Assembly: GCA_052035095.1 (NCBI GenBank)
Contig: JBPOHW010000007.1
Coordinates: 1,705 to 65,704 of the forward strand
Direction of reading: 5' to 3'
Length of the DNA stretch: 64,000 nucleotides
DNA from: Candidatus Moraniibacteriota bacterium
GTDB lineage: Bacteria; Patescibacteriota; Minisyncoccia; Moranbacterales; UBA1568
Every line of letters starts with the position of its first letter. Positions within the stretch are counted from its first letter, which is position 1. The position numbers and the translations under genes were made by a program. A model generated the notes under the pieces. That model had not been told where the DNA came from. It saw only the letters and a program-made list of their open reading frames with translations, and made no database searches. Below are positions 5,764-61,548 of the stretch, in pieces.

Positions 5764-5855
5764 ACATCGAGAAATCACAAAAAATTTCACCCCTGAAAAG
5801 ATTTCTGTGTTTGAATCATATCGCATTGCTTCGAGCACCTTTTCATGCACGCCGA

Positions 5856-5929
5856 GACCGCAGAAAATAATTTTTCGAAAGTTTGCTCCGATAGAGAGGA
5901 GCATGTGAGAAAAATTGTTTTCTGCGGTC
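5856..5929 (+). repeat. Repeat family 2, copy A: hairpin with a 21-bp AT-rich stem (one G.U on the plus strand) and a 32-nt conserved loop
   Basis: gaccgcagaaaataatttttc [gaaagtttgctccgatagagaggagcatgtga] gaaaaattgttttctgcggtc, followed by gaggcaac. Near-identical to 53575..53649 (shared loop boxes AGTTTGCTCCGA and GAGGAGCATGTGAG). Confidence 0.8.
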
Positions 5930-6202
5930 GAGGCAACTCTCATAGGACTTCCTCACTTTGATGCAGTTCGAGGAAAAACCGAGCACCGGAACGAGGTGTA
6001 TGAGACATACTCCGAGTGAGGAGCGCAGGTTTTGACGAAGAAATGCGCAAAGTGAGGAAAGCCTATCTCAATAAAACAAAGCCATGTATATCCACACAGA
6101 AAAAAGAAATCCTTTACGCGCAACACAAATAGTATACACCAAAAAAAGAACGACCGCTGAAAAAGCGATCGTTCCACTCCGCCTCCAACATCGCGCTCGC
6201 GT

Positions 6203-9206: not shown

Positions 9207-11132
9207 TCATTTCTCTCCCCCGATCCGCACCAATTCTCCCGCCAATCGCTTTTCTTCGTCCGTGTCGCCACGCTCGTGCGCGGCGCGCATGGCGCGCTCG
9301 AGGGACTCCATTTCCTCTTTGCGAAGCGTCTCAACGAGATGTCTCCATGTCGTGTCAAAAAACACGCGCACTTTTTTGATATCCGCCTCTTCGATTTGCT
9401 CGGGAAGCTGGAGCATTTTCTCTCCGTGAAACGCAAGTTCCGCGGCGTCTTTCTTGATCTCCTCAGGAAGCTTCGCAAACGAAAACGTCTCCGATGTTTC
9501 ACCCGCGAGAAAGGCGAGAAACGGCATTCTCGAGACAAACGAAAACACCCGTTCTGAAACGCCCTCAAGCGGAAGTGGGAGAAGCGCCGGACACGCGAGA
9601 AGGAGCGCCGCGATATCCTTCCCCAATTTTTCCGACAGCGTTTCAAACGACGCGCGCGAAAGAGAAGTCTCATCTTTTGAAACATCGGGAGAAGACTCAT
9701 GAAAAGAAGTTGGAACCGGTTTCAAATTTTTGAGAAGCGAGAGAAGTGTTCGTTCCGCGACGCCGATCCGATCGGCGAGCGTGTGCACCCAATGCGCCTG
9801 CTCGATATGTTGCGGGATGAGCCGCACCAGTTCCAAGAAGTCTTCCGCGATATATCGCTTCCCTTCCGCCGTTTTCGCGTCATGTGTTTTGAGGGAAGCG
9901 TTCAAAAAATATTCCGGCGCCGGTACGGGATTCGAAACCGCAGTATGAAGAGCCTCCACGTTTTCGCGCGCCATTTCCGCCGCGTCTTTCCCGGAGGGAA
10001 GCGACACGATCGAAACCGAAAACCCGAGCGCGATCGCCATCTCCGCACTCTTTCTCGCCGCCTTTTGCCCCGCGGAGTCCATATCGAAGAAAAGCCGGAG
10101 CGTCTCCGTGGAGCGCTTCACGATGCGGAGTTGTTCTTCCGTGAGCGCCGTCCCCGACACCGCGATCGTATTCGCGAATCCCGCCTGATGCATCGCGATC
10201 ACGTCCATATTTCCCTCCACGAAAAGCGCGTAGCCCTTCTCGCGAATCGCCTGCCGCGCGAGGAATACCCCATAGAGCGCCCGCGACTTGTGATACACTA
10301 CCGTCTCCGGCGTATTGATATACTTTGCCGACGCTTCATCCGCCCCCGGCAGAACCCGCGCCGAAAACCCGATCACCCTTCCCACCGCATCCAAAACCGG
10401 AAACGTCACCCGATCCCGAAAACGGTCGTATGTGCCGGCTTTCAGCTTTCGGCTTTCAGCTTTCAGCTCTTGAGTATTCTCTCCTTGCTGACTGCTGACT
10501 GCTGACTGCTGACTGCCGGACTTTAGGACAACCATCCCCCCCGCTTCTATCTCCTCCAAGGAAAAACCTTTGCTCGTCAAAAAATCCGAGAGCGTCCGCC
10601 AACCCGGAAGCGCGTAGCCCAATCGAAACGCGCGAATACTCTCATCTGAAATCCCGCGACCGCGCAAATACGGAAGCGCTTTCTTTTTTCCCTCGCCGTC
10701 CCACAATTGCTTCTCAAAAAACTTCGATGAAAGATCCAGCATTTTGAACACTCTCTCCTTGGCAACACCAGTAGATTCGATTTCATCCACATTACTCATC
10801 GCGCCAGAGAAAACATCGCCCGCGCTCGAGCCACCAAATCGCCGTCCGCGTTTTTCAAGAACAACACCCGCGCGCTCCGCGAGGAGCGCGAGCGCCTCCG
10901 GAAACGAGAGTCCGTCCATCTCCATCACAAACGAAAAAATATCCCCGCCTTTGTTGCACCCGAAGCAATGCCAGCTCGCCCGTTCCTCATTCACGATGAA
11001 GGACGGTGACTTCTCGTGGTGAAATGGGCAAAGTCCCTTCCAACTCACCCCCACCTTGGTGAGCTGCATATACCCGCCAATCACTTCCCGGACAGAGAGC
11101 CTCGCTTTGATGTCTTCGACTTCGGTATTCAT
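9207..11132 (-). CDS. dnaG: DNA primase DnaG
   Basis: CHC2 zinc finger (CPFHHEKSPSF...HCFGC). TOPRIM region (EGNMDVIAMHQAGF). 641 aa. Contains an in-frame low-complexity insert (SGSQQSAVSSQQ) encoded by (GCTGACT)x4 at 10487..10514. Confidence 0.9.
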   Translation of the reverse strand: MNTEVEDIKARLSVREVIGGYMQLTKVGVSWKGLCPFHHEKSPSFIVNEERASWHCFGCNKGGDIFSFVMEMDGLSFPEALALLAERAGVVLEKRGRRFGGSSAGDVFSGAMSNVDEIESTGVAKERVFKMLDLSSKFFEKQLWDGEGKKKALPYLRGRGISDESIRAFRLGYALPGWRTLSDFLTSKGFSLEEIEAGGMVVLKSGSQQSAVSSQQGENTQELKAESRKLKAGTYDRFRDRVTFPVLDAVGRVIGFSARVLPGADEASAKYINTPETVVYHKSRALYGVFLARQAIREKGYALFVEGNMDVIAMHQAGFANTIAVSGTALTEEQLRIVKRSTETLRLFFDMDSAGQKAARKSAEMAIALGFSVSIVSLPSGKDAAEMARENVEALHTAVSNPVPAPEYFLNASLKTHDAKTAEGKRYIAEDFLELVRLIPQHIEQAHWVHTLADRIGVAERTLLSLLKNLKPVPTSFHESSPDVSKDETSLSRASFETLSEKLGKDIAALLLACPALLPLPLEGVSERVFSFVSRMPFLAFLAGETSETFSFAKLPEEIKKDAAELAFHGEKMLQLPEQIEEADIKKVRVFFDTTWRHLVETLRKEEMESLERAMRAAHERGDTDEEKRLAGELVRIGGEK

Positions 11133-11941: not shown

Positions 11942-12113
11942 TTTCAAAACTTCCGCCTGCGACAAAGAGAAAGAAATTAACGGAGGGGCGGGCAGGCCTG
12001 CGAAAACCACAAATGAAAGCTTCTTTGGGAGGTTATTTCTCTCCAGGACACACAATCTCACCTACCAAGCCCCGGAGCATTTCTTGAACGTGTCACAGGC
12101 GAAAGCTTTGAAA
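11942..12113. repeat. Repeat family 1, copy 2: conserved core closed by a 23-bp inverted repeat with 3 mismatches
   Basis: Flanks tttcaaaacttccgcctgcgaca / tgtcacaggcgaaagctttgaaa. All three mismatches are C.A on the plus strand and would be G.U on the minus-strand transcript. Confidence 0.85.
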
Positions 12114-13602: not shown

Positions 13603-13788
13603 CAGGACTTCCACATTTGTCAAACCTGCCTGCCGGTAGGCAGGGGGAGAGAAATCAACGGAGGGGCGGGCAGACTTACAAAAAACGCGAGAGAAAGCTT
13701 CTTTGGGAGGTTATTTACATCCATAACACAAAAACTCACCTACCAAGCCCCGGAGCATTTCTCGAACGTGACAAATGTGGAAGTCCTG
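13603..13788. repeat. Repeat family 1, copy 3: conserved core closed by a 20-bp perfect inverted repeat; carries an extra GC-rich palindrome (13625..13644)
   Basis: Flanks caggacttccacatttgtca / tgacaaatgtggaagtcctg. Internal cctgcctgccggtaggcagg hairpin sits immediately 5' of the core. Confidence 0.85.
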
Positions 13789-16011: not shown

Positions 16012-16048
16012 GCTTTTGCCTCATTCCTCATTCTTTATTCCTTATTCT

Positions 16049-17023
16049 TCATTCCTGTTTCCCCATCTCCACTCTCGACTTCCAAAAAAAGTACCCAACA
16101 ACGACAAAGGTAATGAACGGCGCCACGAAGGGCGGCACATGCGCGCCAAAAGCTTCGAGGAGCATAATCGTACCGAGCGACAAGACCGAATACATCGCGC
16201 CGTTTTTGAGATAGGCATATTGTTTGATGCGCTCGATATTTCCGATCGTAAATTGTCGCACCGCCAAAGCGCCCAAGCTGTTCCCGATCAAAATGAGCGG
16301 CACCGAAAAGGTGAACGCAAACGCGCCCAACACGCCATCGATCGAAAATGTCGTATCAATCGCTTCGAGATAGAGGAGTTTGCTGATATCGGAAAGCGGT
16401 CGCTTCGAATCGAGCAGTTTCCGCTCACTCTCTTCCGCTTGTTGTTTGAATCCGTGCGTAATGAAGAACGCCGTCGACCCCACCACCGCGCCAAACGCGG
16501 CAAAAGGATTTTCCCCAATCGAAAACCACACGACTCCCGAGAGAATAACCGACACTACCGCATAGAACCACACACCTTGTGAATGAAAGAATTTTTCTCC
16601 GATGAGCCCATACTGTTTCTCCTCCATAAAGAGCCAGTGGAAAAACAAAAAGATCAAGAAAATGCCGCCTCCCATAAGGAGAATCGGCGCCGCCTTTTCA
16701 ACCGCCGCAACCACCGACGGATCGCTCGAGAGGGTTGAGGTAAATGCCTCAACGGGACCAAGCCCCGGCACCGAAAGCCACACAATAAGCCACGGCAAAA
16801 GCCCCCTAACAACAAAGACCGCAAAGAAAAGTCCCCAGGTGAGAAACCATTTTCGGGCACGCTCCCCCATCGTCCCCAACACCTGCGCGTTGATAATCGC
16901 GTTGTCAACGCTCGACACCGTCTCAAAGAGAAAGAGCCCGAGCACCACCAACACAAGAGAAAAAATATCCATAGGATGGATAATAGCAAAAAATGCAAAA
17001 AAGAAAAACCCTATTCCGAACAT
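16049..17023 (-). CDS. Polytopic integral membrane protein, DUF475/TerC-like (tentative)
   Basis: 324 aa with about 8 TM helices. Motif SVDNAIINAQVL is characteristic of the DUF475/TerC-related family. Last gene of the TerY-P operon. Confidence 0.55.
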   Translation of the reverse strand: MFGIGFFFFAFFAIIHPMDIFSLVLVVLGLFLFETVSSVDNAIINAQVLGTMGERARKWFLTWGLFFAVFVVRGLLPWLIVWLSVPGLGPVEAFTSTLSSDPSVVAAVEKAAPILLMGGGIFLIFLFFHWLFMEEKQYGLIGEKFFHSQGVWFYAVVSVILSGVVWFSIGENPFAAFGAVVGSTAFFITHGFKQQAEESERKLLDSKRPLSDISKLLYLEAIDTTFSIDGVLGAFAFTFSVPLILIGNSLGALAVRQFTIGNIERIKQYAYLKNGAMYSVLSLGTIMLLEAFGAHVPPFVAPFITFVVVGYFFWKSRVEMGKQE

Positions 17024-26205: not shown

Positions 26206-26314
26206 ACTATCACTATAACAGAAAACGACATTCGATAAAATCGAAGTGGATTTTCAATGACCAATTTTCAATTTCCAATATAAATCGAATCAAACGGACT
26301 TCCTTGAAAATTGA

Positions 26315-31119: not shown

Positions 31120-31412
31120 ACACGTATGCCCGCCCGCAACAAGAGGAAACCGCTATGAAGCAAGCGCAAACGCGAACCGCGCGCGCGAAAAACTTTCTGA
31201 AATACCCCAAACAATGAGAGCAAGAAGACCAAAAAGTATCATAGGAGGAAAATTCTTGTTGAAAACGGGAGAAAAATATATTAACGCTCCGTCCCATCAT
31301 AGAATGTCCCCATCTTTTTGTCAAAGACCCCCCGAAATGATAGGATGGGAGAAAGAAATGCAAAGTTCAAAATGAAAAATGGAAATGAAGTTTTTCTGGA
31401 TTTCATAATTTT

Positions 31413-31454
31413 GAACTTTGAATTTTGAATTTTGAATTTTGAATTTTGAATTTA
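31413..31454. repeat. Heptanucleotide microsatellite (GAATTTT)x4-5 immediately upstream of the gpmI start
   Basis: gaactttgaattttgaattttgaattttgaattttgaattta. Ends about 7 nt before the ATG at 31461. Confidence 0.8.
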
Positions 31455-31460
31455 TACCAT

Positions 31461-33029
31461 ATGTATCGACCCCTCGTTTTAGTGGTCTTGGATGGCTGGG
31501 GCATCAGTTCCAGCACGCAGGGAAACCCGATTCGCGAAGCGAACCTCCCCACCATCGACAAGCTCAATAAGTATTATCCTATGACCGCGCTCCAGGCGTC
31601 CGGCATTGCCGTGGGACTCCCTTGGAACACGCCGGGGAACAGCGAAGTCGGTCACATGACGCTCGGCTCCGGACGCGTCATCTACCAAAACCTCCCGAGA
31701 ATCTCACTCGCCGTCCAAGATGGATCTTTTTTCAAAAATACCGCGTTTCTCGACGCTATGGAGCGCGTGAAAGCAAACGGCGGAGCACTCCACATTATAG
31801 GGCTCGTCGGCGAAGGATCCGTCCACTCCAACAAAGATCACCTCTATATGCTCCTTCAGATGGCGGCTCAAAACAACGTCTCGAAAGTTTTCGTGCACGC
31901 CTTTACCGACGGTCGTGACTCTCCGCCCACATCCGGCGTCCACACCATAAAGGAAGTTATGGCGCGCACTGCTATGCTCGGTATCGGGACCGTGGCGAGC
32001 ATTGGCGGACGAAACTGGGCGATGGATCGCAACAATAACTGGGATCGTGTCGAAAAAGCCTACCGGGTATTCACCGAGGGGGCGCCATCAACCGACAACC
32101 TCATCGCCTATATGGAAGCATCCTACCGAAAGAACGTCACCGACGAATATATCGAACCCGTTATGCTTGCGCAAAACGGAAAACCGGTCGGCGTGGTGCA
32201 AAACGGCGATGCGGTTATTTTTTTCAACTATCGCGAAGATCGCGCCCGCGAAATCACCAAGGCATTCACAATACCCGACTTTGACGGATTCCCTCGTCCC
32301 GAAAAGCTCGATATCACTTTCGTCACTATGACCGAATACGAGCGAAATCTCCCCGTCCAAGTCGCCTTCGGACCCGAAGAAGTCACCAATTCTCTCGGTG
32401 AGCTCTTAAGCAAAGCCGGAAAAATCCAACTCCGCATCGCGGAAACCGAAAAATACGCTCACGTCACCTACTTTTTCAACGGCGGAAAAGAAAAGGCGTG
32501 GCCCGGCGAAGAACGACTCCTCGTCCCCTCCCCGCTCGTGGCCCGTTTCGACGAAATTCCGGAAATGAGCTCGGCGGAAACCACCAACAAAACCATCGAA
32601 GCCGTTCAGTCCGGAAAATATGATTTCATCCTTTTGAACTACGCAAGTCCCGATATGGTGGGTCATACCGGAAACGAAAAAGCGTCCATCGAAGCGGTCG
32701 AGTCCACTGACAAATGCCTCTCTCTCCTCATCCCCGTCGTGCTCCAGGCAGGCGGCGCGCTCCTCATCACCGCCGATCACGGCAATGTCGAGGAAGTGAG
32801 AAATCTCAAAACCGGCGAAGCGGACACCGAACATTCCAAAAACCCCGTCCCCATCTGGTTCGTAGCGCCAGATAACCACCGCGAAAAGACCGCCGAGGAA
32901 ATCGTACGGGAAGAAACCCAGGTAGAAGGACTCCTCTCCGACGTCGCCCCCACCATTCTCGAGATTATGAACCTCGAAAAACCCGAAGAAATGCACAGCA
33001 ACAGCCTCCTGCGACTGTTTAAGAAGTAA
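31461..33029 (+). CDS. gpmI: 2,3-bisphosphoglycerate-independent phosphoglycerate mutase
   Basis: Trimmed from TTG-initiated ORF 31446 to ATG 31461 (MYRPLVLVVLDGWGI). Metal-dependent iPGM family motifs throughout. Confidence 0.9.
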   Translation: MYRPLVLVVLDGWGISSSTQGNPIREANLPTIDKLNKYYPMTALQASGIAVGLPWNTPGNSEVGHMTLGSGRVIYQNLPRISLAVQDGSFFKNTAFLDAMERVKANGGALHIIGLVGEGSVHSNKDHLYMLLQMAAQNNVSKVFVHAFTDGRDSPPTSGVHTIKEVMARTAMLGIGTVASIGGRNWAMDRNNNWDRVEKAYRVFTEGAPSTDNLIAYMEASYRKNVTDEYIEPVMLAQNGKPVGVVQNGDAVIFFNYREDRAREITKAFTIPDFDGFPRPEKLDITFVTMTEYERNLPVQVAFGPEEVTNSLGELLSKAGKIQLRIAETEKYAHVTYFFNGGKEKAWPGEERLLVPSPLVARFDEIPEMSSAETTNKTIEAVQSGKYDFILLNYASPDMVGHTGNEKASIEAVESTDKCLSLLIPVVLQAGGALLITADHGNVEEVRNLKTGEADTEHSKNPVPIWFVAPDNHREKTAEEIVREETQVEGLLSDVAPTILEIMNLEKPEEMHSNSLLRLFKK

Positions 33030-35559: not shown

Positions 35560-37080
35560 TTACTGGTTAATTTCGTTTTCTTTTACTTCATTCTCTGTTC
35601 CCATTTTCTCATTCTTCGCTTCTTCTCCGCCTGTTTCGTTCTCAATTCCCGATTCCTGATTCTCCTCTATCTCTCCTCCATTCTCCATCCCCAATTCTTG
35701 ATCGCCCGTTGTTTGTTGTTCGTTGTCAGTTGTCAGTGGTTCATTGTTCCCCGTTTCCTGCTCATTGTTCATTGTTTCCTGCTCCTTGCTTTTCCTCGTT
35801 CCACTTCCGGCGATATCGATGCGAAGTCCCGTCAACTTGGACGCGAGTCGCACGTTTTGCCCCTTTCGCCCGATCGCCAAGGAAAGCTGGTCTTCCGGCA
35901 CGTGAACGAGCGCGCTCCTGGTTTCTTCGTGGAGTTCCACCTTGCTCACTTTGGCGGGGGAAAGCGCCGCCTTGATAAATTTGTACGCGTCGTCGCTCCA
36001 TTCGATAATGTCGATTTTTTCCCCGCCCAATTCGTCAATGATCGCCTGCACGCGCGTCCCCTTCTGCCCCACGCACGAGCCAATAGGATCAACACCTTCT
36101 TCGGCGGTAAAGACGGCAATCTTGGTGCGCGAGCCCGCTTCACGTGCAATCGCCTTGATCTCCACGACGCCCGAGAAAATTTCCGGCACCTCAAGCGTAA
36201 ACAAATGTCGCACCATCTCGGCATGCGCGCGCGACAACGTGATACCGGGACCCTTGGCGTCCGCCTCGACCCGAAGTATATACACCTTGATCCGCTGTCC
36301 GATACGGTAATTCTCGCCTTCCATTTGTTCCGACGGAAAGAGCGCGCCCACGGATTTGCCGAGGTCGACAAAGACGATCCGCCCGTCGATACGCTGGATG
36401 ATACCGTTCACGATCGTGCCTTCTTTACTCTTGTATTCGGCAAACATACTCTCGCGCTCCGCCTCGCGAATGCGCTGGATAATCACTTGTTTCGCCGTTT
36501 GCGCGGCGACGCGCCCGAATTCCTGCTCCATGGGAAGCGAAAGCTCGATCGTCTCACCAATCTCCGCATCCACCTTCACTAAGCGAGCCTCCTCGAGCGT
36601 CATATCGCGCTCGGCATTAAATCGCGGCAATCGCTCCTCATCACCCTCATCCTCAGTAGAAAGCTCCGCCAATGTTTCAGTCTTCAGATTTTTTTTCTCA
36701 TCATGCGCGTCCTCACGCTTCGCGGGAGTCGTTTCGACTTCTTCCGGCGCTTCCTCGACAAATTCGCGCGTCGTCTCGTCCACCACCTCTTTGAGGAGGA
36801 AGTATTTCGCTGACTTCGTCACCTTGTCAAACTCAGCGCGAATCACCTGCCCGCGCTTCCCATAGTCCTTCTTGTACGCCGCGGCAAGCGCCGCCTCGAC
36901 GACTTCCATCACTTTTTCCTCGGAAATACCCTTTTCCTCAGCAAGCTGCAGCACAGCACTCCCAAACTCGCCCAGCCGAATCGACCCTGATTGCCCGGGT
37001 TCTTTTTTGCCGCCTTCATCCTCATCTTCACCCTCCTCGCGCTCGATATCCTCATCAAGCAGTTTCTTCTTTCGTGCCAT
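35560..37080 (-). CDS. nusA: Transcription termination/antitermination factor NusA with acidic/Gln-Asn-rich C-terminal tail
   Basis: Trimmed to ATG at 37080 ([13 protein letters not shown]). S1 and KH1/KH2 domains ([19 protein letters not shown]; [26 protein letters not shown]). Low-complexity E/Q/N/T tail. Confidence 0.85.
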
Positions 37081-37304
37081 AATAAAAATAGAATTTAAGA
37101 ATTTAGAATATGGAATAAAGAATGTGGAATAAGGGGAGTCAGACAAGGAAAATGCCCCAGATATGCCTTTGATTCACCATTCTTCATTCGCTTTTCGTCC
37201 TTCCATTCATTAAAAAAGGCTCGCTCGCGCGAACCGGACCGCTCCCACCCAAAAACTACCCAGAATATAGCACCAAAGAAGAAGCGTGTCAAATGACGAC
37301 CGTG

Positions 37305-38426
37305 TTACAAAAAGAGATCTCCGAGATACTTTTCCGCCGAAACAACATTGATAGTGCGAAAGGAAGCTTCACGTTTTAACTCTTTGACCACTTGCGTTCC
37401 TTTGATGTCATACTTACTCGAAAAATAGGTGAGGTTTTGGCTTGGCTCACTTTCCGAGAGTTTCGCCTCGATAAGTTCAGTGACAGTTCCATTTTCAACC
37501 AGAGCAAAATCCGTTTCTTTTCCTTCTTTTGTCCGGAAATACTTAAGTTCGTATTGCTTTCCGGTTGCATCCGAGAGCGCAGAAACATGTTTGAAAAGAC
37601 TTATGGCGACAAAATTTTCAAACCTCGCTCCCCCATCCCCTTCGACAAGTCCGGTATCAAAGAAATATACTTTTGGTTCTTTGAGAATTGAGCGGGCGAT
37701 ATTGCGCGAATACGGCGTGACGCGAAATACAATGAAAAGCGATTCAAAAATTTCCAGATAGCGCTTCACGGTAATCGGAGACACCTGAACATCTTCGGCA
37801 ATCGAATTGAGAGAGAGTGGCGACCCGACACGACGCCGAAGAAGTTCCAGCGTCATTTGCACCGCTTTCAGGTTATGCACCATCTCGAAATCCAAAATAT
37901 CAGTTCGAATGAGGCCATCGAAATACTGGTTTCTCCACCGGGTAGCATCTTCTTCCGTTTCAGCCAAAAACGGTTCCGGAAAACCGCCTCGAGTAATAAG
38001 CCTCTCTATATCGGCAGGCTCTCCGATATGTTTCAGCTCCGCCAAAGAGAACGGAAGGAGGCGATGAACAAAAAACCTCCCCGCAAGCGAATCGCCAGCT
38101 TGCCGAAACGTATTCATTCGCGCGCTTCCGGTTACCAATATTTTAAGAGAAGGCGCTTTCGTGTCAAAAACGCCCTTCAGATAATTTTTCCATCCTCGCA
38201 TTTTATGAAGTTCATCAAGGATAAGAAGCGTTGTGCCAAGAGGCCACGCCTCTTTTTTAATAATCTGACGATCTTCTTCTCGATCAAAATTCAAATAGAC
38301 GGGAGAAGCGTCTGTTTTTCCTATTTCTCTCGAAAGCCACGTCTTTCCAACCTGGCGAGGACCCACCAGAAAGACCATCTTTTTATCGAGGTCTTTGAGA
38401 ATACGTTCTGTTTGTGCGCGTTTCAT
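37305..38426 (-). CDS. AAA+ ATPase (AAA_14/DUF4143-type)
   Basis: Walker A GPRQVGKT and Walker B LILDELH. C-terminal DUF4143-like region. Confidence 0.75.
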   Translation of the reverse strand: MKRAQTERILKDLDKKMVFLVGPRQVGKTWLSREIGKTDASPVYLNFDREEDRQIIKKEAWPLGTTLLILDELHKMRGWKNYLKGVFDTKAPSLKILVTGSARMNTFRQAGDSLAGRFFVHRLLPFSLAELKHIGEPADIERLITRGGFPEPFLAETEEDATRWRNQYFDGLIRTDILDFEMVHNLKAVQMTLELLRRRVGSPLSLNSIAEDVQVSPITVKRYLEIFESLFIVFRVTPYSRNIARSILKEPKVYFFDTGLVEGDGGARFENFVAISLFKHVSALSDATGKQYELKYFRTKEGKETDFALVENGTVTELIEAKLSESEPSQNLTYFSSKYDIKGTQVVKELKREASFRTINVVSAEKYLGDLFL

Positions 38427-40777: not shown

Positions 40778-41707
40778 TCACGTCGTCGCTGGCGCGAAAA
40801 ACTCCGCAATTTGTCGAACGATGACGAGCGACGCGAGCGCGACCACGATACCGAGGAGTGCAAAAGTGACAATCTTCTTCGCCACCCCGATCCGATTCAT
40901 ATCCCCTGCCGCGCCGAGGAACATAATGCCCCCGATAACGAGGAAAATAATCGCGAGAATCCCTACGATTCCAAGAAGGAAATTGAGGACCGAGAGAAGG
41001 ATATCCGCGGCGCTCTTTGCACCCGAGACCTCCGGCGGAACCGTGCCGCCCCAGCCCAAGACCGTCGCGATTTCCTTGAGGAAGGTCGGCGCCAAAATCC
41101 CGATCGCGAGCCCGATGAGGGCCGCCGTGATCGCGAGCTTCGCCGCCGTCACCTGCGACTGTCGCCCGCCGGACGTAATGTACAAGACCGCTCCAATCAC
41201 GATAAAGACGAGCGAAAGCACGACAATGACACCCTGCAAAGCATACAACAACGCTGTCAAAACTTCTTGTACCGTATCATATTTCAAGGGATTGGGAAGC
41301 GTTATGCTCACCGACGAGCCGGATCCGGTTGTTGTCCCTCCACCACCCGTACCCCTTGGGGGACAATAATTTGGTTTCGTTGGATCCGTACATATAGATT
41401 TGCATCCTGTCTGTGTCGTATCATCATCCGCAGTACAAGTTGTCTTACAATAACTCGCATTGCACGTGGAGGAAGAACTGCTTGTTTCGCAGCAAATATA
41501 CCCTTCCGAACTACTGCAATTATCAAACGTTCCCGATTTAATAACTCCAGGAGAGGGGCAGGTTTCTTGGCATACGCATGTTTTTCCGCTACTGCATGAT
41601 GCCTGACATGTCGCCGCTTTTGCCCCTTCCGGTGCCACTGCAAACGCCCCCAACACCAGCACCCCCAACACGGCCGCTACCCTCCCAAATTGTGCCATTG
41701 TTTCCAT
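40778..41707 (-). CDS. Cys-rich secreted protein fused to two tandem TrbC/VirB2-like pilin modules
   Basis: Signal peptide (METMAQFGRVAAVLGVLVLGAFAVAPEGAKA). Roughly 110-aa Cys/Ser/Thr-rich region (CQASCSSGKTCVCQETC...), Gly-rich linker, then two pilin-like hydrophobic hairpin modules (…LYITSGG… and …MFLGAAGDMNRIGVAKK…). Confidence 0.65.
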   Translation of the reverse strand: METMAQFGRVAAVLGVLVLGAFAVAPEGAKAATCQASCSSGKTCVCQETCPSPGVIKSGTFDNCSSSEGYICCETSSSSSTCNASYCKTTCTADDDTTQTGCKSICTDPTKPNYCPPRGTGGGGTTTGSGSSVSITLPNPLKYDTVQEVLTALLYALQGVIVVLSLVFIVIGAVLYITSGGRQSQVTAAKLAITAALIGLAIGILAPTFLKEIATVLGWGGTVPPEVSGAKSAADILLSVLNFLLGIVGILAIIFLVIGGIMFLGAAGDMNRIGVAKKIVTFALLGIVVALASLVIVRQIAEFFAPATT

Positions 41708-41723
41708 AATGAGTAGTGAGTAG

Positions 41724-41741
41724 ATAGTAGCGAGTAGATAG
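41724..41741. repeat. Left 18-bp terminal inverted repeat (ATAGTAGCGAGTAGATAG) of the four-helix-bundle cassette; embedded in AGTAGNN heptamer tandem repeats
   Basis: Exact reverse complement at 42229..42246. Region 41711..41741 reads gagtagtgagtagatagtagcgagtagatag. A second arm at 41774..41793 forms a long hairpin with 41719..41738. Confidence 0.8.
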
Positions 41742-41802
41742 AAAATAAAATGTTTTCTACCTACCAAATACTGTCTACTCGTTGCTATCTACTGATAAAT
41801 AC

Positions 41803-42180
41803 CTAAATATTATTCCTGACAGACTTCATTAGGCCGGAGAGAATTTTACTTACCTGTATCGTTTCCTCAGCAAGGGCGTCAAAAATATTTCTTTCAAGAA
41901 ATCCGATATCTCGTGCAATAAGCAGTTGGTTTTGAAGTTCAAAAATAGATCCTCTGGAAATAGCGTAAAATTGAAGTTTTTCTTTGGAAGAGCTCCTGCC
42001 AAATCCCTCTGCAATGTTGGAAGTAATGGAAATAGCACACCGACGTATCTGATTCGTAAGAGAAAAAATTTCCGCCCTCGGAAAAGACTCAGTTGCCCGA
42101 TAGACTGCAAGCACCAATTTGTGCCCTTTCTGCCACACTACCAAATCCGTAAAAGACTGTATTTTTGATATATCGCCCAT
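41803..42180 (-). CDS. Four-helix-bundle protein of the 'S23 ribosomal / rRNA intervening-sequence protein' family (PF05635-like)
   Basis: 125 aa. MGDISKIQSFTDLVVWQKGHKLVLAVYRATESFPRAEIFSLTNQIRRCAISITSNIAEGFGR... Local base composition is more AT-rich than the flanking pilin genes (by eye). Confidence 0.65.
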   Translation of the reverse strand: MGDISKIQSFTDLVVWQKGHKLVLAVYRATESFPRAEIFSLTNQIRRCAISITSNIAEGFGRSSSKEKLQFYAISRGSIFELQNQLLIARDIGFLERNIFDALAEETIQVSKILSGLMKSVRNNI

Positions 42181-42228
42181 ACAACCAAATACTGAAACAC
42201 CGAATGTTCTCTTGCTAGATACTCCCTA

Positions 42229-42246
42229 CTATCTACTCGCTACTAT
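42229..42246. repeat. Right 18-bp terminal inverted repeat (CTATCTACTCGCTACTAT) of the four-helix-bundle cassette
   Basis: Reverse complement of 41724..41741. A 10-bp direct repeat CCAAATACTG (41764..41773 and 42185..42194) flanks the ORF just inside the IRs. Confidence 0.8.
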
Positions 42247-42248
42247 TC

Positions 42249-43091
42249 TCACCCTCCCCACGCCGTCCCGCGCAACAAAGCATCGATCGCGATAATAATC
42301 ACGAGCCCGGCGAGCGCAACAATCACGCCCACGATGGAAAATTTCATATTCCGCTTCGCGGTCTCGATCATATTCATATTCCCCGCCGCCGCCAAGTACT
42401 GAATGCCCGAAATCACAAACGCGATAATCGCGAGGAATCCGAAGAGATAGAGCATCCACTTCATAAGATTGGTGACGATAAGCGCCACCGACGTTTCGGA
42501 GAGCCCCGTATTGAGCGGGAAACACACCCCCGCGTATTCCTTGAACTTCGCCGGATCGCACTTCACCGCCGTCGTCCCCGACCCGGTAGTACCACCCGTC
42601 TTGCAAAACTTCTTATTTGTCGCTTGTGAAGCGCATTGCGACGCACTGCACGTCGTATCCTCAGTCTCCCCCGTCACGCAAGCCGCCTTACAACCCCCAC
42701 CGGTACAGGATGAGGAAGAAAGGGTTTTACAACACACCAATTTATTATCTAAAGCTCTGCAATAACCATTGTCAGTAGAAACGGTAGTTTTTGGAGATAC
42801 ACAACCGGACATACTCTCACACGAACACGTCCCACCCGAACCGCAATTGCTGGTACAAGTGTTTCCGGAAGCAGTGACACAACACACTTGACCCAAACTG
42901 GATTCACAGTGATCTGAATCTGGACCAGATATTCCGGAAGAACACGTAGCACTCGCGGGAATACAGGTTCCGCTGCTCCCATTGTACGTACATGTCTGAG
43001 CAAAGACATCTCTGCCAAAAAACAAAGCCCCTGCTACAATGAAGCAAGAAAAAACAAAACTCAAAAACGAAATTCTCTTCATAAGAAACAT
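42249..43091 (-). CDS. Cys-rich secreted protein fused to one C-terminal TrbC/VirB2-like pilin module
   Basis: Trimmed to ATG at 43091 (MFLMKRISFLSFVFSCFIVAGALFFGRDVFA signal peptide); TGATG overlap with the upstream pilin gene. Roughly 150-aa Cys-rich region, then …GIQYLAAAGNMNMIETAKRNMKFSIVGVIVALAGLVII…. Confidence 0.65.
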   Translation of the reverse strand: MFLMKRISFLSFVFSCFIVAGALFFGRDVFAQTCTYNGSSGTCIPASATCSSGISGPDSDHCESSLGQVCCVTASGNTCTSNCGSGGTCSCESMSGCVSPKTTVSTDNGYCRALDNKLVCCKTLSSSSCTGGGCKAACVTGETEDTTCSASQCASQATNKKFCKTGGTTGSGTTAVKCDPAKFKEYAGVCFPLNTGLSETSVALIVTNLMKWMLYLFGFLAIIAFVISGIQYLAAAGNMNMIETAKRNMKFSIVGVIVALAGLVIIIAIDALLRGTAWGG

Positions 43092-43465
43092 CAAAAATAC
43101 GAATCGGCGCTCAACCACACATCGACTGCCTGAACGATCACGTACCCCATCAGCGCGACAATCACCCCGACGATAGACCACTTCATCGCTTCTTTGGCCG
43201 TTTTGATCTGACCGTCATTTCCGGCGGCCGTAAGATAGAGGATGCCCGAAATCACAAAGCCGATAATCGCGATGAAGCCGAGAAGTCCAAGGATCCAATC
43301 CATCGTACTGCCCGCGATATCAATAATAGGCGCAACTGGCAATCCCGACTGCATCGGCCCCGTAAGCGCCGGGTTCTCCCCCGTCTGCGCAAGCGCGCCA
43401 AGTGGCAGAAGCGCCATTCCCCCAGCTATTCCCCTCCGAACCCGCGAAACTATTGTGTGTTTCAT
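43091..43465 (-). CDS. TrbC/VirB2-like small pilin-family membrane protein
   Basis: 124 aa. Signal peptide, then two hydrophobic helices separated by LYLTAAGNDGQIKTAKEAMKWS. Paralogous to 43555..43926 and 44105..44485. Confidence 0.7.
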   Translation of the reverse strand: MKHTIVSRVRRGIAGGMALLPLGALAQTGENPALTGPMQSGLPVAPIIDIAGSTMDWILGLLGFIAIIGFVISGILYLTAAGNDGQIKTAKEAMKWSIVGVIVALMGYVIVQAVDVWLSADSYF

Positions 43466-43926: not shown

Positions 43927-44104
43927 ATATCAAATTGTACCACAAAAAAAGAAAATTCGAAAAAAAATTATTCCACACGAACCATAAAGAGAAAATATTT
44001 CCTGTCAAGCCCTCATTCTTCATTCACCATTCTCCATTCCTCCTCCAAAACCAAAACGCCCCCGAAAATCGGGAGCGCCTCGGCAAGAAATCTTCGAAGA
44101 ATTC

Positions 44105-53456: not shown

Positions 53457-53574
53457 CATCCGACTTGAAACACACGAAACAAATACAAAACTCCGATACA
53501 TTCCGGAGTTTTGTTGGTATAATGTCACTATAGCTAACCTATATACTCTGAAAATTTCTACCATGCGCGCTGAA

Positions 53575-53649
53575 ACCGCGAAAAATAATTTTTCTCTAGT
53601 TTGCTCCGAGCCCAATGAGGAGCATGTGAGAAAAATTATTTTTCGCGGT
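53575..53649 (+). repeat. Repeat family 2, copy B: perfect 20-bp AT-rich stem hairpin with 35-nt conserved loop
   Basis: accgcgaaaaataatttttc [tctagtttgctccgagcccaatgaggagcatgtga] gaaaaattatttttcgcggt, then gaggcaac. Located between infB and cca. Confidence 0.8.
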
Positions 53650-53692
53650 CGAGGCAACGTTCAAAAGAGCAGAAATTGAACAAATTGAGAGT

Positions 53693-55396
53693 ATGATCGA
53701 TATGAAAGAATCACAAAAAATCCCCCTTCCCGTCCTTGAAACCCTTTTCGCACTTGAAAGGGCTGGGTTTGAGGCGTTTATCGTGGGCGGATGCGTGCGC
53801 GATCTCATCTTGGAAAGAGAGCCCAAAGACTGGGACATCACCACCAATGCCCTCCCCGAAGAAATTCAAGCCATATTCCCCGACAGCTTCTATGAAAACG
53901 TTTTCGGCACCGTCGGCGTAAAGGTCAGACCCTTCATGCCCAAAGGAAAAGAAGATCGCGAAGAAGACGTGATCGAAATCACCACCTACCGCGCCGAATC
54001 CGGCTACGACGACAAGCGCCACCCTTCAAACATTTCCTTCGTCAAAACCGTCGAAGAAGACCTTGCCCGCCGCGACTTCACGATGAACGCGATCGCGCTG
54101 CGAACTGACAACTCACAACTTACAACTGACAACGCTTCACAACTTCCAACTTCCAACTTCCAACCGACAACTCGCAACAAAAACACGACATTGAAATCCG
54201 AAATTGAAAATTGTGAATTGAACATTGAAAATTCCCTCCCGAACTACCCACTACCCACTACCAACTACCAACTTATTGATCCTTTCAACGGTCAACGAGA
54301 TATCAAAGACAAAACCATCCGCGCGGTTGGCGATCCAGACGCTCGCCTCGGCGAGGACGCGCTCCGAATGCTCCGCGCTGTCCGATTCTACGCCGAACTC
54401 CGCACGCCGACGCCGCTTCCCAAAGAGGCCTTTATGGAAAAGGGAAATGAAAGCGATTTGCTCCACCATTCATCCGACTGGACTATCGAATCGGAAACCT
54501 GTGCGGCGATCAAGCGGCGAGTCGGCGACATTCGCGCCATATCAATGGAGCGCATCGGAGACGAACTCGGGAAAATCCTCCTCTCACCAAGCCCCGCCCA
54601 CGGCATCGATATGTTGCGGAAAACCGGACTCTTGTCGCGCATCCTGCCGGAACTCGAAGCGGGCGTCGGCGTCGGACAAAATCTCCACCATATCTATACC
54701 GTCTACGAACACAATCTCCGCGCCCTCGCAACCTGCCCTTCAAAAAAGCTCGAAGTACGCCTCGCCGCCCTTCTCCACGACGTCGGGAAGCCCCAAACCA
54801 AGCGCGGCGAGGGCTACCGATCCACCTTCTACAATCACGACCATGTGGGCGCCCGCATCACCCGAAGACTCCTCGAGCGACTGCGCTTCCCCGCGAAACT
54901 CATCGCAAAAACCGTGCTCCTCGTTGACAACCATCTCTTTTACTATAATGTAGGGGAAGTGACCGCCGCCTCCGTCCGCCGCCTCATCCGACGCGTGGGA
55001 CTCGAGAATATGCGCGACCTGATGGACATCCGCATCGGCGACCGCCTCGGATCCGGCACACCCAAGGCAAAGCCCTACAAATTGCGCCACCTAGAATATA
55101 TGATCGAGAAGGTCTCAAATGATCCCGTCTCGGTCAAAATGCTCGCCATAAACGGCAGTGACGTGATGAAAGAACTCGCGATCACTCCGGGACCCAAAAT
55201 CGGCGCTATACTGGACGTCCTCCTTGCGGAAGTTATCGAAGATCCGACAAAAAACACCAAAGAATCCCTCTTCGAACGCGCCAAAGAACTCGAGAAAGAA
55301 GACTTGAACCGCCTCCGCGAACTCGCCAAAGACAAAATAGAAGAAAAACGCGCGTCAGACGATCAAAAAGTCAAACACAAACACTGGGTGCAGTAA
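53693..55396 (+). CDS. cca: tRNA nucleotidyltransferase (CCA-adding enzyme; poly(A) polymerase head + HD domain) with low-complexity insertion
   Basis: Head domain GGCVRDLIL...DWD and HD domain (HDVGKP). In-frame insert TDNSQLTTDNASQLPTSNFQPTTRNKNTTLKSEIENCELNIENSLPNYPLPTTNYQL is encoded by simple DNA repeats (54100..54260). Confidence 0.8.
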   Translation: MIDMKESQKIPLPVLETLFALERAGFEAFIVGGCVRDLILEREPKDWDITTNALPEEIQAIFPDSFYENVFGTVGVKVRPFMPKGKEDREEDVIEITTYRAESGYDDKRHPSNISFVKTVEEDLARRDFTMNAIALRTDNSQLTTDNASQLPTSNFQPTTRNKNTTLKSEIENCELNIENSLPNYPLPTTNYQLIDPFNGQRDIKDKTIRAVGDPDARLGEDALRMLRAVRFYAELRTPTPLPKEAFMEKGNESDLLHHSSDWTIESETCAAIKRRVGDIRAISMERIGDELGKILLSPSPAHGIDMLRKTGLLSRILPELEAGVGVGQNLHHIYTVYEHNLRALATCPSKKLEVRLAALLHDVGKPQTKRGEGYRSTFYNHDHVGARITRRLLERLRFPAKLIAKTVLLVDNHLFYYNVGEVTAASVRRLIRRVGLENMRDLMDIRIGDRLGSGTPKAKPYKLRHLEYMIEKVSNDPVSVKMLAINGSDVMKELAITPGPKIGAILDVLLAEVIEDPTKNTKESLFERAKELEKEDLNRLRELAKDKIEEKRASDDQKVKHKHWVQ

Positions 55397-60721: not shown

Positions 60722-60906
60722 GAAATTCGCGTATTCGGCTAACCTGCCTGCCGGCAAGGCAGGGAGAAAGAAATTAACGAAGGGGCGAGCAAACGTACAA
60801 AAACCACAAACGAAAGCTTCTTTGGGAGGTTATTTCTATCCATAACATACAAACTCACCTACCAAGCCCCGGAGCATTTCTTGAACGTGCCGAATACGCG
60901 AATTTC
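60722..60906. repeat. Repeat family 1, copy 4: conserved core closed by an 18-bp perfect inverted repeat; carries GC-rich palindrome 60743..60763
   Basis: Flanks gaaattcgcgtattcggc / gccgaatacgcgaatttc. Internal cctgcctgccggcaaggcagg. Lies 75 nt upstream (minus-strand sense) of nrdA and just downstream of sodA. Confidence 0.85.
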
Positions 60907-60921
60907 GGACGCCACAGGACA

Positions 60922-61548
60922 TTATGCCTTTTTTTCAACAACACTCCAATCAATCGCCTTGAAAAAGGCTTCAATATAGTCCGCGCGCTTCAATCCGTAG
61001 TCGAGCATAAAGGCATGCTCAAACACATCCATCACGAGAATTGGCATCGCTCCGGAAAGATGTCCGCCATCATGCTCATTGATCCACGTATTGAAAAGCA
61101 TTCCCGTCTGCGGATCTTTGGCAAGAATCACCCACCCGATCCCTCGCATCGTCCCCGTCCCAACAAAATCCTTCCTCCACTTCTCAAAACTCCCGAAAGA
61201 ATTTTCAAGAACCTCCAACATCCGACTCCCAACTCCCGACCCCGCTTTTTCCCCTTTCTCTCCACCTAATTCTTCATTTTTCATTTTTAATTTTTCATTT
61301 CCCTTCATATTCCCAAAGTACAGCTCATGCAACCGCATTCCATTCCATTCCCACCCAAATCGCCGCTTGAGCTCCGCGTATTCCGGCGTCCCCGGCTCTT
61401 TCGTCGCGAGAAGCTCGAGAAGTGTATTCACATTTTTCACATATCCTTCATAGAGCGCAAAATGATTTGTGAGAAGCACATCGCTCATTCCCGGCATTCC
61501 CAAAAGATGCTTAAAATCTTGTATTTCATATTTCATACCGGTTGACAT
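60922..61548 (-). CDS. sodA: Fe/Mn superoxide dismutase with internal low-complexity insert
   Basis: N-terminal HFALYEGYVKNVN (SOD helical domain). C-terminal DVFEHAFMLDYGLKRADYIEAFFKAIDW (D-x-W-E-H signature). Insert KGNEKLKMKNEELGGEKGEKAGSG. Confidence 0.8.
   Translation of the reverse strand: MSTGMKYEIQDFKHLLGMPGMSDVLLTNHFALYEGYVKNVNTLLELLATKEPGTPEYAELKRRFGWEWNGMRLHELYFGNMKGNEKLKMKNEELGGEKGEKAGSGVGSRMLEVLENSFGSFEKWRKDFVGTGTMRGIGWVILAKDPQTGMLFNTWINEHDGGHLSGAMPILVMDVFEHAFMLDYGLKRADYIEAFFKAIDWSVVEKKA

Follow-up and report, generated by a model that had tools for sequence, protein, structure and literature searches.

The closest described relatives of the element analysed here are the intervening sequences (IVSs) of bacterial 23S rRNA that carry an open reading frame (ORF). 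To our knowledge, the '23S rRNA IVS protein' family encoded by these ORFs has had no function attached to it since 1993, and the origin of bacterial IVSs is still unexplained; thousands of family copies are annotated simply as 'four helix bundle protein'. ORF-bearing IVSs occur in Leptospira, Coxiella burnetii (CBU_2096, or S23p), Xanthomonas, Brucella and Azospirillum, and their family, PF05635/TIGR02436, is shared by a four-helix-bundle (4HB) gene in the stretch of DNA studied here, 64,000 nt of a Candidatus Moraniibacteriota contig (JBPOHW010000007.1), hereafter the window. We analysed this gene together with the inverted heptamer repeats that enclose it, the whole forming a compact cassette between two pilin-like genes.

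In the Coxiella IVS, a 28-bp terminal inverted-repeat stem is cut by RNase III in vitro and carries the S23p ORF in its loop, while two to three tandem GACAGAT heptamers stand upstream of the ATG, with the 5′ cut falling at the start of the first repeat (PMC4990558). Genes labelled 23S_rRNA_IVP have also been reported inside cas operons and loci (PMC3936711) and in 16S and 23S insertions of Candidate Phyla Radiation (CPR) bacteria (preprint). ORF-bearing IVSs with terminal inverted repeats, the Coxiella heptamers and these other locations of the gene are thus known already; new are an IVS-type element living in an mRNA operon and the array-ORF-array arrangement as a general envelope. In the literature searched (subscription-only papers excluded), we found no description of inverted heptamer arrays as a family-wide gene envelope, of ORF-less or in-frame derivatives, or of covariation between the protein and its repeats.

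The window cassette resembles the ORF-bearing IVSs in its terminal inverted-repeat stem around the ORF, its heptamers 5′ of the ATG, its size range (about 0.4-0.55 kb) and the co-orientation of its ORF with the host transcript. It differs from them in lying between protein cistrons rather than in helix 25 or 45 of an rRNA (we found no rRNA in the window) and in having an extra inner arm. We read it, with a probability of roughly 55%, as an IVS-type selfish cistron that would be transcribed by read-through from the host operon, be bounded by an arm stem of the kind that RNase III cuts, and encode a pentameric heptamer-binding protein. By a similarly slight lean in favour, we take it for an undamaged representative of a class of small selfish elements that is widely distributed, the same element type that has been called an ORF-bearing IVS where it sits in 23S rRNA.

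The cassette in the pilin spacer

All coordinates are those of the window, and the sense strand of the cassette is the minus strand, which carries every gene between 44903 and 40778. The upstream host gene (42249..43181, minus strand) ends in ...LLRGTAWGG*, a C-terminus that is conserved in relatives lacking the cassette, and the downstream host gene (40778..41707, minus strand) encodes a 309-aa protein beginning METMAQFGRV. Both belong to PF18895. The preliminary description had called them pilins, which is right in so far as they encode pilin-like proteins of a type IV secretion system (T4SS), and wrong if type IV pili are meant. In the sense direction, the first AGTAG begins 4 nt past the upstream TGA (42249-42251) and the last CTACT stops 4 nt short of the downstream ATG (41705-41707); the cassette (41708-42248, 541 nt) therefore occupies the entire spacer between these two co-oriented genes, both of which lie outside it.

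In its basic form, the element runs from a 5′ array through leader, ORF and trailer to a 3′ array. Directly after the upstream pilin stop, the 5′ arm A1 (42212..42248, minus strand) consists of four to five tandem AGTAGNN units, reading GAAT AGTAGCG AGTAGAT AGTAGGG AGTATCT AG, and is followed by a leader (42181..42211, minus strand) that runs to the ATG of the 125-aa ORF (41803..42180, minus strand). Behind the ORF stop comes a 43-nt insertion (41760..41802, minus strand) containing the extra inner arm A2, which is again of sense type (41771-41793; AGTAGAT AGCAACG AGTAGAC AG). A short, A/T-rich trailer (41745..41759, minus strand) forms the loop between A2 and the 3′ arm B (41708..41744, minus strand), whose antisense heptamers read CTATCTA CTCGCTA CTATCTA CTCACTA CTCATT on the sense strand. 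Arms B and A1 share an exact 18-bp inverted repeat (41724-41741 and 42229-42246) that is unique in the window; a search allowing up to 3 mismatches gave 5 matches, all within the cassette, and 0 in 100 shuffles. Beyond the exact core, pairing between the arms can be followed over 33 nt with 85% of positions complementary (41712-41744 and 42212-42244), and three consecutive AGTAGNN units matched 7 times with overlaps, only in the cassette, against 0 expected. A 10-bp direct repeat, CCAAATACTG, lies inside the inverted repeats (41764-41773, in the 43-nt insertion, and 42185-42194, in the leader). The preliminary description, which had listed the ORF, both repeats, the heptamers and an extra left hairpin arm, was accurate on each of these features and their positions.

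Pairing energies favour the long-range stem, with -39.6 kcal/mol for A1:B against -24.4 kcal/mol for A2:B, the latter pairing A2 with 41719-41741 (23 nt, 87%). When the 571-nt sense RNA is folded, the A1:B stem encloses the ORF in the minimum free energy structure as well as in the centroid structure, and A2 plus the 3′ arm make up a local hairpin like the ORF-less mini-elements found elsewhere. Base composition also sets the element apart: GC is 0.35-0.42 over the cassette against about 0.5 in its surroundings, and the ORF (GC 0.40) has a GC at third codon positions (GC3) of 0.37 against 0.53-0.63 in the neighbouring genes, which bears out the earlier remark that it is more AT-rich than they are.

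Intergenic inverted repeats are common, and a hairpin (A2:B) at the 3′ end of the ORF could suggest an ordinary terminator or RNA-stability stem around an unrelated gene, or else an invertible segment or an integron cassette. We give readings of this kind almost no weight. An exact 18-mer inverted repeat has an expectation of 0 by chance, and 79 of 82 relatives show the same pattern (see below). Neither promoter-like nor terminator-like sites were called above chance at the window arms, and no T-run was present, so that a terminator or promoter explanation of the arms was rejected. Orientation is fixed (73 of 79 loci co-oriented with the upstream neighbour, and all 12 assemblies that carry the exact protein alike), and the cassette is therefore not an inverton, while an arm upstream of the ORF (at least 30 nt) and heptamer arrays in both arms are unlike the single 3′ attC site of an integron cassette.

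Comparison with an orthologous cassette (L011), which occupies the same position between pilin genes and encodes an 89% identical protein, shows which parts are kept. The whole element aligns, including the arms and a homologous trailer, except for the lineage-specific 43-nt insertion (41760-41802) that L011 lacks. The right copy of CCAAATACTG has a counterpart in the L011 leader; because the left copy sits in the insertion, the repeat is no target-site duplication (TSD) and does not mark the boundary of the cassette. From the alignment, we read it as a relic left when the 5′ arm and the leader were partly duplicated, or else as the result of a deletion in L011. For the two ORFs we obtained a dN/dS of 0.07 at a dS of 0.87, while the arms were about 90% or more identical and a 24-nt core of the 3′ arm was unchanged despite that synonymous divergence. 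These values show strong purifying selection on the protein, with both protein and arms under constraint. The Coxiella IVS ORF, in contrast, is reported to be decaying and untranslated, whereas the window ORF is intact.

Syntenic regions, located through orthologues of the downstream pilin gene (pilins, a large pilin, two minus-strand genes and NusA), allowed the site to be compared among relatives; these orthologues also mark the source as Moranbacteria-like. One (L095, pilin identity 69%) has a clean empty site, a short spacer with neither 4HB gene nor heptamers. In two others (L093/L094, 75%) the spacer is 214 nt long (3787-4000) and ORF-less, with a C/GAAT heptamer array (TCAATTT TCAATTA CGAATTT TCAATGA TCAATGA) and a partial antisense array, and in a fourth (L096, 66%) a 106-nt spacer (3895-4000) contains GGAACAA TGAACAA TGAGCAA GGAACAA plus a small hairpin and no ORF. 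The cassette has thus been gained, lost or decayed among relatives at this site, and the comparison of syntenic pilin arrays that had been suggested as a check yielded both an empty site and ORF-less remnants. The arrays of other classes in the spacers of L093/L094 and L096 could reflect recurrent insertion or rapid concerted turnover. Among 12 independent assemblies with the exact protein, all represent the same genome at 99.6-100% identity, with the same cassette orientation and no empty site; SRR10398024 and SRR18853683 are among the data sets that contain this genome.

Two further observations concern the same region. Four independent Logan assemblies of the same organism (contigs L002-L005) all end at the same base, about 42372, in the upstream pilin gene; this point lies in a 236-nt C-terminal block common to four pilin paralogues (42258, 43097, 43561, 44117), and the contig ends are probably an assembly break at that repeat. 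Between the pilin region and nusA, an AAA_14/DUF4143 ATPase gene (37305-38426, minus strand) is present in the window and in L093/L094 and absent from the syntenic L095 and L096.

The encoded protein and the repeat envelope of its family

The ORF, the sole gene of its kind in the window, matches PF05635 over profile positions 2-106 of 106 (E 9.4e-37; 125.9 bits, cut-off 33.8) and the NCBIfam model TIGR02436, 'four helix bundle protein' (122.8 bits, cut-off 24). An AF2 model of the monomer (pLDDT 92.7) has helices at residues 5-29, 34-59, 64-90 and 96-122, in the numbering of the full 125-aa protein that is used throughout. Foldseek matched it to XCC0516 (2GSC; TM 0.85-0.92, rmsd 0.6-0.7 Å), which phmmer also found in the PDB (E 6.5e-18), and to BT_0352 (2RLD; TM about 0.8). 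The helix-2 motif described for the family, GxxRxxxSxxxNxxE (Lin 2006; Zhang & Ye 2013; quoted in PMC3936711), is present as R47-x3-S51-x3-N55-x2-E58 (QIRRCAISITSNIAEG) without its leading Gly, and these four columns are invariant in 34 relatives. The protein is basic (pI 9.5; family median 9.46). Pfam, NCBIfam and PADLOC scans of the ORF product detected no nuclease, recombinase or transposase domain, and a role as an anti-phage defence gene was set aside, there being no PADLOC match.

More distant Foldseek matches were to Avd proteins of diversity-generating retroelements (DGRs), namely bAvd (4DWL) and a DGR ribonucleoprotein (8UB7). All four depositions (2GSC, 2RLD, 4DWL and 8UB7) hold five chains, those of 8UB7 within an RNA-protein complex, and Avd shares with the window protein its fold and a basic character, and with the solved relatives of that protein the pentameric assembly. 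Avd works bound to nucleic acid and a partner enzyme. DGRs are common in CPR bacteria, and a DGR Avd that diversifies the neighbouring pilin-like genes would be in keeping with the setting. We rejected this reading as wildly improbable. Sequence identity to Avd is about 10%, and the similarity scores stay below the family cut-offs (29.6 bits against 40 for the bAvd family PF22296, 22.7 against 80 for NCBIfam NF033474). The 64-kb window contains no pair of template and variable repeats; long direct repeats in it are limited to the pilin paralogues and to two dispersed repeats of unrelated sequence. The neighbourhoods read held no called reverse transcriptase, the window as a whole not having been scanned with a reverse transcriptase profile. 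The neighbours of the cassette are pilins, two unannotated genes, AAA_14 and NusA, and its relatives are located in unrelated operons.

More than 5000 relatives of the protein were found at E ≤ 1e-10. From these we took 80 genome loci with 53-68%-identical relatives, chosen by similarity to one subfamily; they come mainly from CPR/Patescibacteria, with additional metagenome-assembled genomes labelled Bdellovibrionales, Gammaproteobacteria and Clostridia. In the array survey, 90 nt on either side of the ORF were inspected at 82 loci, an array being defined as at least 3 identical 4-mers at exact 7-nt spacing. Nearly all loci carry tandem heptamers just 5′ of the ATG, often overlapping it, and a reverse-complement array just past the stop: arrays were found upstream in 73 of 82, downstream in antisense in 59, and on either side in 79, compared with 2.8% of control windows. 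Self-match at period 7 was 0.78 against about 0.46 at the other periods from 3 to 12. Four heptamer copies were most frequent (44 of 82), followed by five; the cores were GTAT, GAAT or GTAG, and the purine-rich array always stood 5′ of the ORF. The inverted-repeat pattern noticed in the window is thus a property of other family copies as well.

The two arms of an element also belong together. They matched their own partner better than they matched other elements of the same class (18.1 against 16.5 and 17.9 against 16.0 of 21; p about 5e-7), and the median duplex energy was -31.9 kcal/mol for own arms, -21.6 kcal/mol across loci and -19.7 kcal/mol for shuffled sequences. Plasmid-borne copies have the same layout with other heptamers. 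The copy on plasmid p2 of Azospirillum lipoferum (L101) is a true 23S helix-45 IVS (Rfam LSU, 546 bits) with CAGAGGA CGGATGA CAGAGGA CGGAGGA upstream of the 4HB ORF and an antisense array downstream; in Nostoc punctiforme (pNPUN02), (AGTCAGG)x5 is followed by the 4HB ORF and an antisense array; and plasmid copies in Riemerella and Picosynechococcus are built alike, the latter between cas10/cmr2 and cmr3. The IVS-like anatomy claimed for the window cassette is supported by this shared layout in L101 and in the Coxiella IVS (PMC4990558).

Most of these cassettes are embedded in operons. A same-strand neighbour lies upstream in 73 of 79 loci, downstream in 67 of 80 and on both sides in 60 of 82, with median gaps of 43 nt upstream and 24 nt downstream, so that the arrays are essentially the spacers; one Moranbacteria genome, for example, has the order parA-4HB-parB. 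Co-orientation, short gaps and the lack of promoters beyond chance at the window arms indicate that the cassettes act as extra cistrons dependent on host transcription. All 80 of the closest genome loci fall outside rRNA genes; rRNA IVSs are therefore one context among many and not the usual one for this subfamily, and the earlier statement that such genes are classically encoded inside 23S rRNA reflects a historical bias. Ribosomal RNA is just one of the destinations of this general array-ORF-array cassette, which resides mostly inside protein operons, and 4HB genes within cas, par or pilin operons should accordingly not be counted as functional partners of their neighbours. At one locus (L045, 3397-3469) a cassette with AGTAG-type arms adjoins a tRNA gene on the opposite strand, and insertions are hence not all within protein operons.

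Two residues of the protein vary with the heptamer core. Residue 65 is Tyr in 34 of 39 proteins of the GAAT class, in 1 of 27 of the GTAT class and in 0 of 8 of the GTAG class; residue 121 is Ser or Thr in 35 of the 39 GAAT-class proteins and otherwise Leu, Lys or Ile. Mutual information with the core, computed without regard to phylogeny, is 0.71 for residue 65 and 0.66 for residue 121, against a permutation 95th percentile of 0.35, while overall identity is nearly the same within classes (62.8%) as between them (60.4%). Several close pairs from different classes differ at the two residues as predicted. Residue 65 is the first of helix 3, at the turn between helices 2 and 3, and residue 121 is at the end of helix 4; in the structural model both lie at the same pole of the bundle, beside the invariant E58-G-F-x-R62. 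Such covariation is the pattern expected if the protein reads the heptamer core.

Duplications within single genomes indicate what is copied. Second 4HB genes occur within 3 kb of the first in three genomes (L059, 1017-1516; L069, 5306-5745; L047, 2-262). In L069 the two genes are 2.3 kb apart, both with GAAT arms, and the similarity between the copies covers exactly the stretch bounded by the outer edges of their two arrays, with unrelated flanks; the array-bounded cassette is therefore the copied unit, in line with the earlier suggestion that these genes ride on their own small elements. The second paralogue in L059 has diverged (58 bits) and lies between TAGANNN/TCTANNN arrays of its own. 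Arms can also change in place: one orthologous site has GTAT arms in L028/L081 and GAAT arms in L055, the 4HB proteins being 70% and the neighbours 68-90% identical, which implies that arms can switch class concertedly while the gene diverges like its neighbours.

With regard to movement, calling the element autonomous went too far: the cassette has no transposase or recombinase (its sole ORF is the 4HB gene), no TSDs and no promoter of its own that we could detect, and movement by the 4HB protein is not supported. Across 54 loci, flanking direct repeats followed the cross-locus null distribution, with no TSD at the window, and an apparent 8-bp TSD in L012 (CTTTTTAG) was rejected on this ground. 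With TSDs and a transposase both lacking, classical transposition is a less likely route than recombination or gene conversion by way of the arrays. Carriage by phages found no support, as viral contigs yielded no relatives of the subfamily in a search limited by its peptide patterns.

Arrays without the gene

Heptamer arrays are not confined to cassettes. The window contains 15 of them against 0 in shuffles; the AGTAG class is found in the cassette only, apart from one CTAC-type array inside cca, and the rest are of the GAAT or other classes. Flanks of the 82 loci added 112 further arrays (2.8 per 10 kb), many of them hairpins, and ORF-less arrays near a 4HB gene share the class of its arms (20:0 and 1:17).

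One complete ORF-less element in the window is the hairpin found at 37099-37210 (minus strand) in the leader of nusA, whose ATG is at 37079; in it, GAATGAA GAATGGT GAATCAA and CTTATTC CACATTC TTTATTC CATATTC TAAATTC are separated by a 38-nt loop. The collinear leader in L093 has no hairpin, with about 50 nt of unrelated T-rich sequence in its place, while a promoter-like region and an upstream hairpin are conserved. Sense array-loop-antisense hairpins of this form, in the nusA leader and at related loci, parallel the ORF-less rRNA IVS hairpins of Salmonella, Campylobacter and Yersinia. Further arrays in the window, mostly of the GAAT class, are at 44014-44039, 31407-31453, 16023-16054, 26255-26279, 35708-35747 and 61276-61300. 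Among them, one lies between two other pilin genes, one of GAACAAC type falls within the 3′ part of the nusA ORF, one is found just past the stop of the gene at 16049..17023, and (TTTGAAT)x6 at 31407-31453 abuts the ATG of the gene at 31446..33029.

Arrays placed in leaders and intercistronic spacers, such as those at 37099-37210 and 31407-31453, invite the reading of a domesticated host regulator, in which the 4HB pentamer would bind RNA in trans, much as TRAP or HutP does, with the arrays as its regulon and its own arms as a means of autoregulation, nothing in the system being selfish. The strong purifying selection on the ORF, the conserved arms, stable inheritance of the cassette at one site in several Moranbacteria and the covariation of protein and repeat core all suit this proposal. 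Against it, both the cassette and the nusA-leader hairpin are present, absent or reduced to remnants at orthologous sites in close relatives, the ORF has a foreign-looking GC3 (0.37 against 0.53-0.63), unrelated operons are invaded (parA/parB, cmr2/cmr3, rRNA) as are essential genes in frame, and one genome can hold several paralogues with different array classes. On balance we consider a domesticated regulator a poor bet, though less so than the DGR or ordinary-hairpin readings.

Arrays also appear as in-frame inserts in essential genes, in cca and probably in dnaG. The CCA-adding enzyme gene cca (ORF 53693..55396, plus strand) contains about 170 nt (54100-54275) with arrays CAACTNA, CAACTTC, ATTGAAA and CACTACC; the corresponding residues 140-188 have no counterpart in the solved structure 6IBP, in which RRDFT.NA and IDPFGG are contiguous. 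The DnaG primase gene (ORF 9207..11132, minus strand) contains about 84 nt (10438-10516) composed of (CAGTCAG)x4, 21 nt and (CTGAAAG)x4, an imperfect hairpin in which the 5-nt core of each unit is paired and 2 nt are mismatched. This insert encodes SGSQQSAVSSQQGENTQELKAESRKLKAG just ahead of the conserved TOPRIM-proximal block, and the alignment to the PDB begins right after it. By analogy only, the cca insert parallels the in-frame insertions of Rickettsia palindromic elements (RPEs). Mini-IVS hairpins and in-frame RPE insertions are both known; the ORF-less elements of the window differ in being built of 7-nt tandem units with a conserved 4-5-nt core, and their likeness to IVS hairpins and RPEs is one of form. 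For annotation, what is recorded in a CPR or cyanobacterial genome as a spacer, a 5′ leader or a low-complexity protein insert may be an element of this type.

These scattered copies recall repetitive extragenic palindromic (REP) sequences, their hairpin-forming doublets (REPINs) and the REP-associated tyrosine transposases (RAYTs), where one gene stands between inverted copies of a short repeat that is also dispersed without it. At related loci, ORF-less arrays in the vicinity are of the class of the local 4HB arms, while in the window itself the AGTAG class is limited to the cassette and the one array inside cca. The likeness is an analogy, as RAYT (TnpA-REP) is a homologue of HUH/Y1 transposases and not a 4HB fold, and REPs are single palindromes and not heptamer arrays. 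In a reading of this kind at the DNA level, independent of any transposase, the 4HB protein would bind the arrays on DNA and itself promote the copying of array-bounded units (cassettes with the ORF as well as mini-hairpins lacking it) to new sites, the RNA stem being incidental. In L069 the duplicated unit is indeed the cassette from array to array; hairpins that lack the ORF but belong to the same heptamer class occur at several places in the vicinity and are present or absent between relatives; the arrays in frame inside cca, and probably dnaG, resemble selfish insertions; array class is concordant with the local 4HB arms and covaries with the protein; and a test of wobble pairs (below) gave no sign of selection at the RNA level. 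On the other side, we know of no catalytic activity of the 4HB fold and detected no nuclease or recombinase motif, TSDs are lacking, and a DNA-only mechanism does not need the near-universal co-orientation with the host or the fixed polarity of the arrays. It also has to face the fact that most arrays lie away from any 4HB gene, and the many heptamer classes that occur together in one genome. We regard a purely DNA-level element as unlikely, if still the foremost competitor of an IVS-type selfish cistron.

A further parallel is offered by the short tandemly repeated repetitive (STRR) heptanucleotides of cyanobacteria, which are likewise dispersed tandem 7-nt repeats and mostly intergenic. STRRs are known to invade a structured RNA gene, that of RNase P RNA. 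Cyanobacterial plasmids dominate the plasmid matches to the window protein, and no link between STRRs and 4HB genes was found in the literature searched, with a handful of cyanobacterial loci examined.

Proposed mechanism and other repeats

As an IVS-type selfish cistron, the cassette would have no promoter of its own and would be transcribed by read-through from its host operon. Its two arms would then pair in the transcript as a terminal stem of at least 30 bp with the ORF shut inside. As in the Coxiella IVS, the A1:B stem may be cut by RNase III and the cassette RNA thereby separated from the host RNA, which would make an insertion tolerable in rRNA and in operons alike. The protein, presumably a pentamer like its solved relatives, may bind the heptamers of its own arms, with 4-5 units for five subunits. 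The most likely effect of such binding would be control over how the protein's own message is translated or processed; it may also help to maintain the arrays or to spread them.

Several observations weigh against this explanation and have to be set beside it. RNase III processing of the window cassette would be a transfer from the rRNA IVS of Coxiella; the A2:B hairpin, being local, could outpace or hinder formation of the long-range A1:B stem; and the Shine-Dalgarno sequence of the window ORF is weak, with no strong one in the leader. Where the two arms mismatch, sense G:U pairs are no commoner than A:C (21 against 41 over 21 nt, 35 against 41 over 28 nt), and arm complementarity could therefore be kept at the DNA level or stem from recent copying; as proof of an RNA stem, the wobble asymmetry was negative or uninformative and was dropped. 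The 80 genome loci represent the one subfamily from which they were drawn, and among six more distant plasmid copies, two from cyanobacteria (L097, L099) have no clean inverted array, the arrays of L097 (Nostoc 7120) being present without inversion. The covariation statistics take no account of phylogeny, the nearest neighbour being of the same class in 59 of 74 cases, and there are exceptions (L026, L061, L065). Finally, 13 of the 15 window arrays have no adjacent 4HB gene, and metagenome loci with (AGTAGNN)x4 adjoin one in 2 of 80 cases and lack one in the other 78, which means that arrays can exist without a cis-encoded protein. The metagenome scan was discarded as a converse test; its pattern is too unspecific, and arrays far outnumber genes.

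A broader and more tentative idea, which we hold to be possible yet rather doubtful, is that there exists a very large and so far overlooked class of 'heptamer-array elements', each recognised in a sequence-specific way by a partner from the PF05635/TIGR02436 family. Contact with 4-5 heptamers would be made by the pole of the pentamer that carries residues 65 and 121, and the protein would drive or police their spread without a transposase or TSDs, in the manner of REPIN/RAYT systems, though with a non-enzymatic fold. On the same doubtful footing, the class would span ORF-bearing cassettes (the classical rRNA IVSs included), ORF-less mini-hairpins, solo arrays, in-frame inserts and perhaps the cyanobacterial STRRs. 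Together, the anatomy of the cassette, the unit of duplication, the ORF-less versions and the tracking of repeats by residues turn an orphan family into one with a testable idea of function.

The window also contains two dispersed repeats of other kinds. The first, about 125-140 nt long, has four copies, all on the plus strand (2249-2387, 11960-12098, 13638-13776 and 60757-60895), with a mean column identity of 83% and invariant blocks GAAAGCTTCTTTGGGAGGTTATTT and CTCACCTACCAAGCCCCGGAGCATTTCTTGAACGT; it had no Rfam match at the gathering threshold. The second is a pair of about 105 nt (5844-5947 and 53562-53668) that is 83-87% identical and 47.7 kb apart, the second copy standing just upstream of the cca-like gene; the pair may represent a promoter or leader common to both places, or else encode a small RNA.

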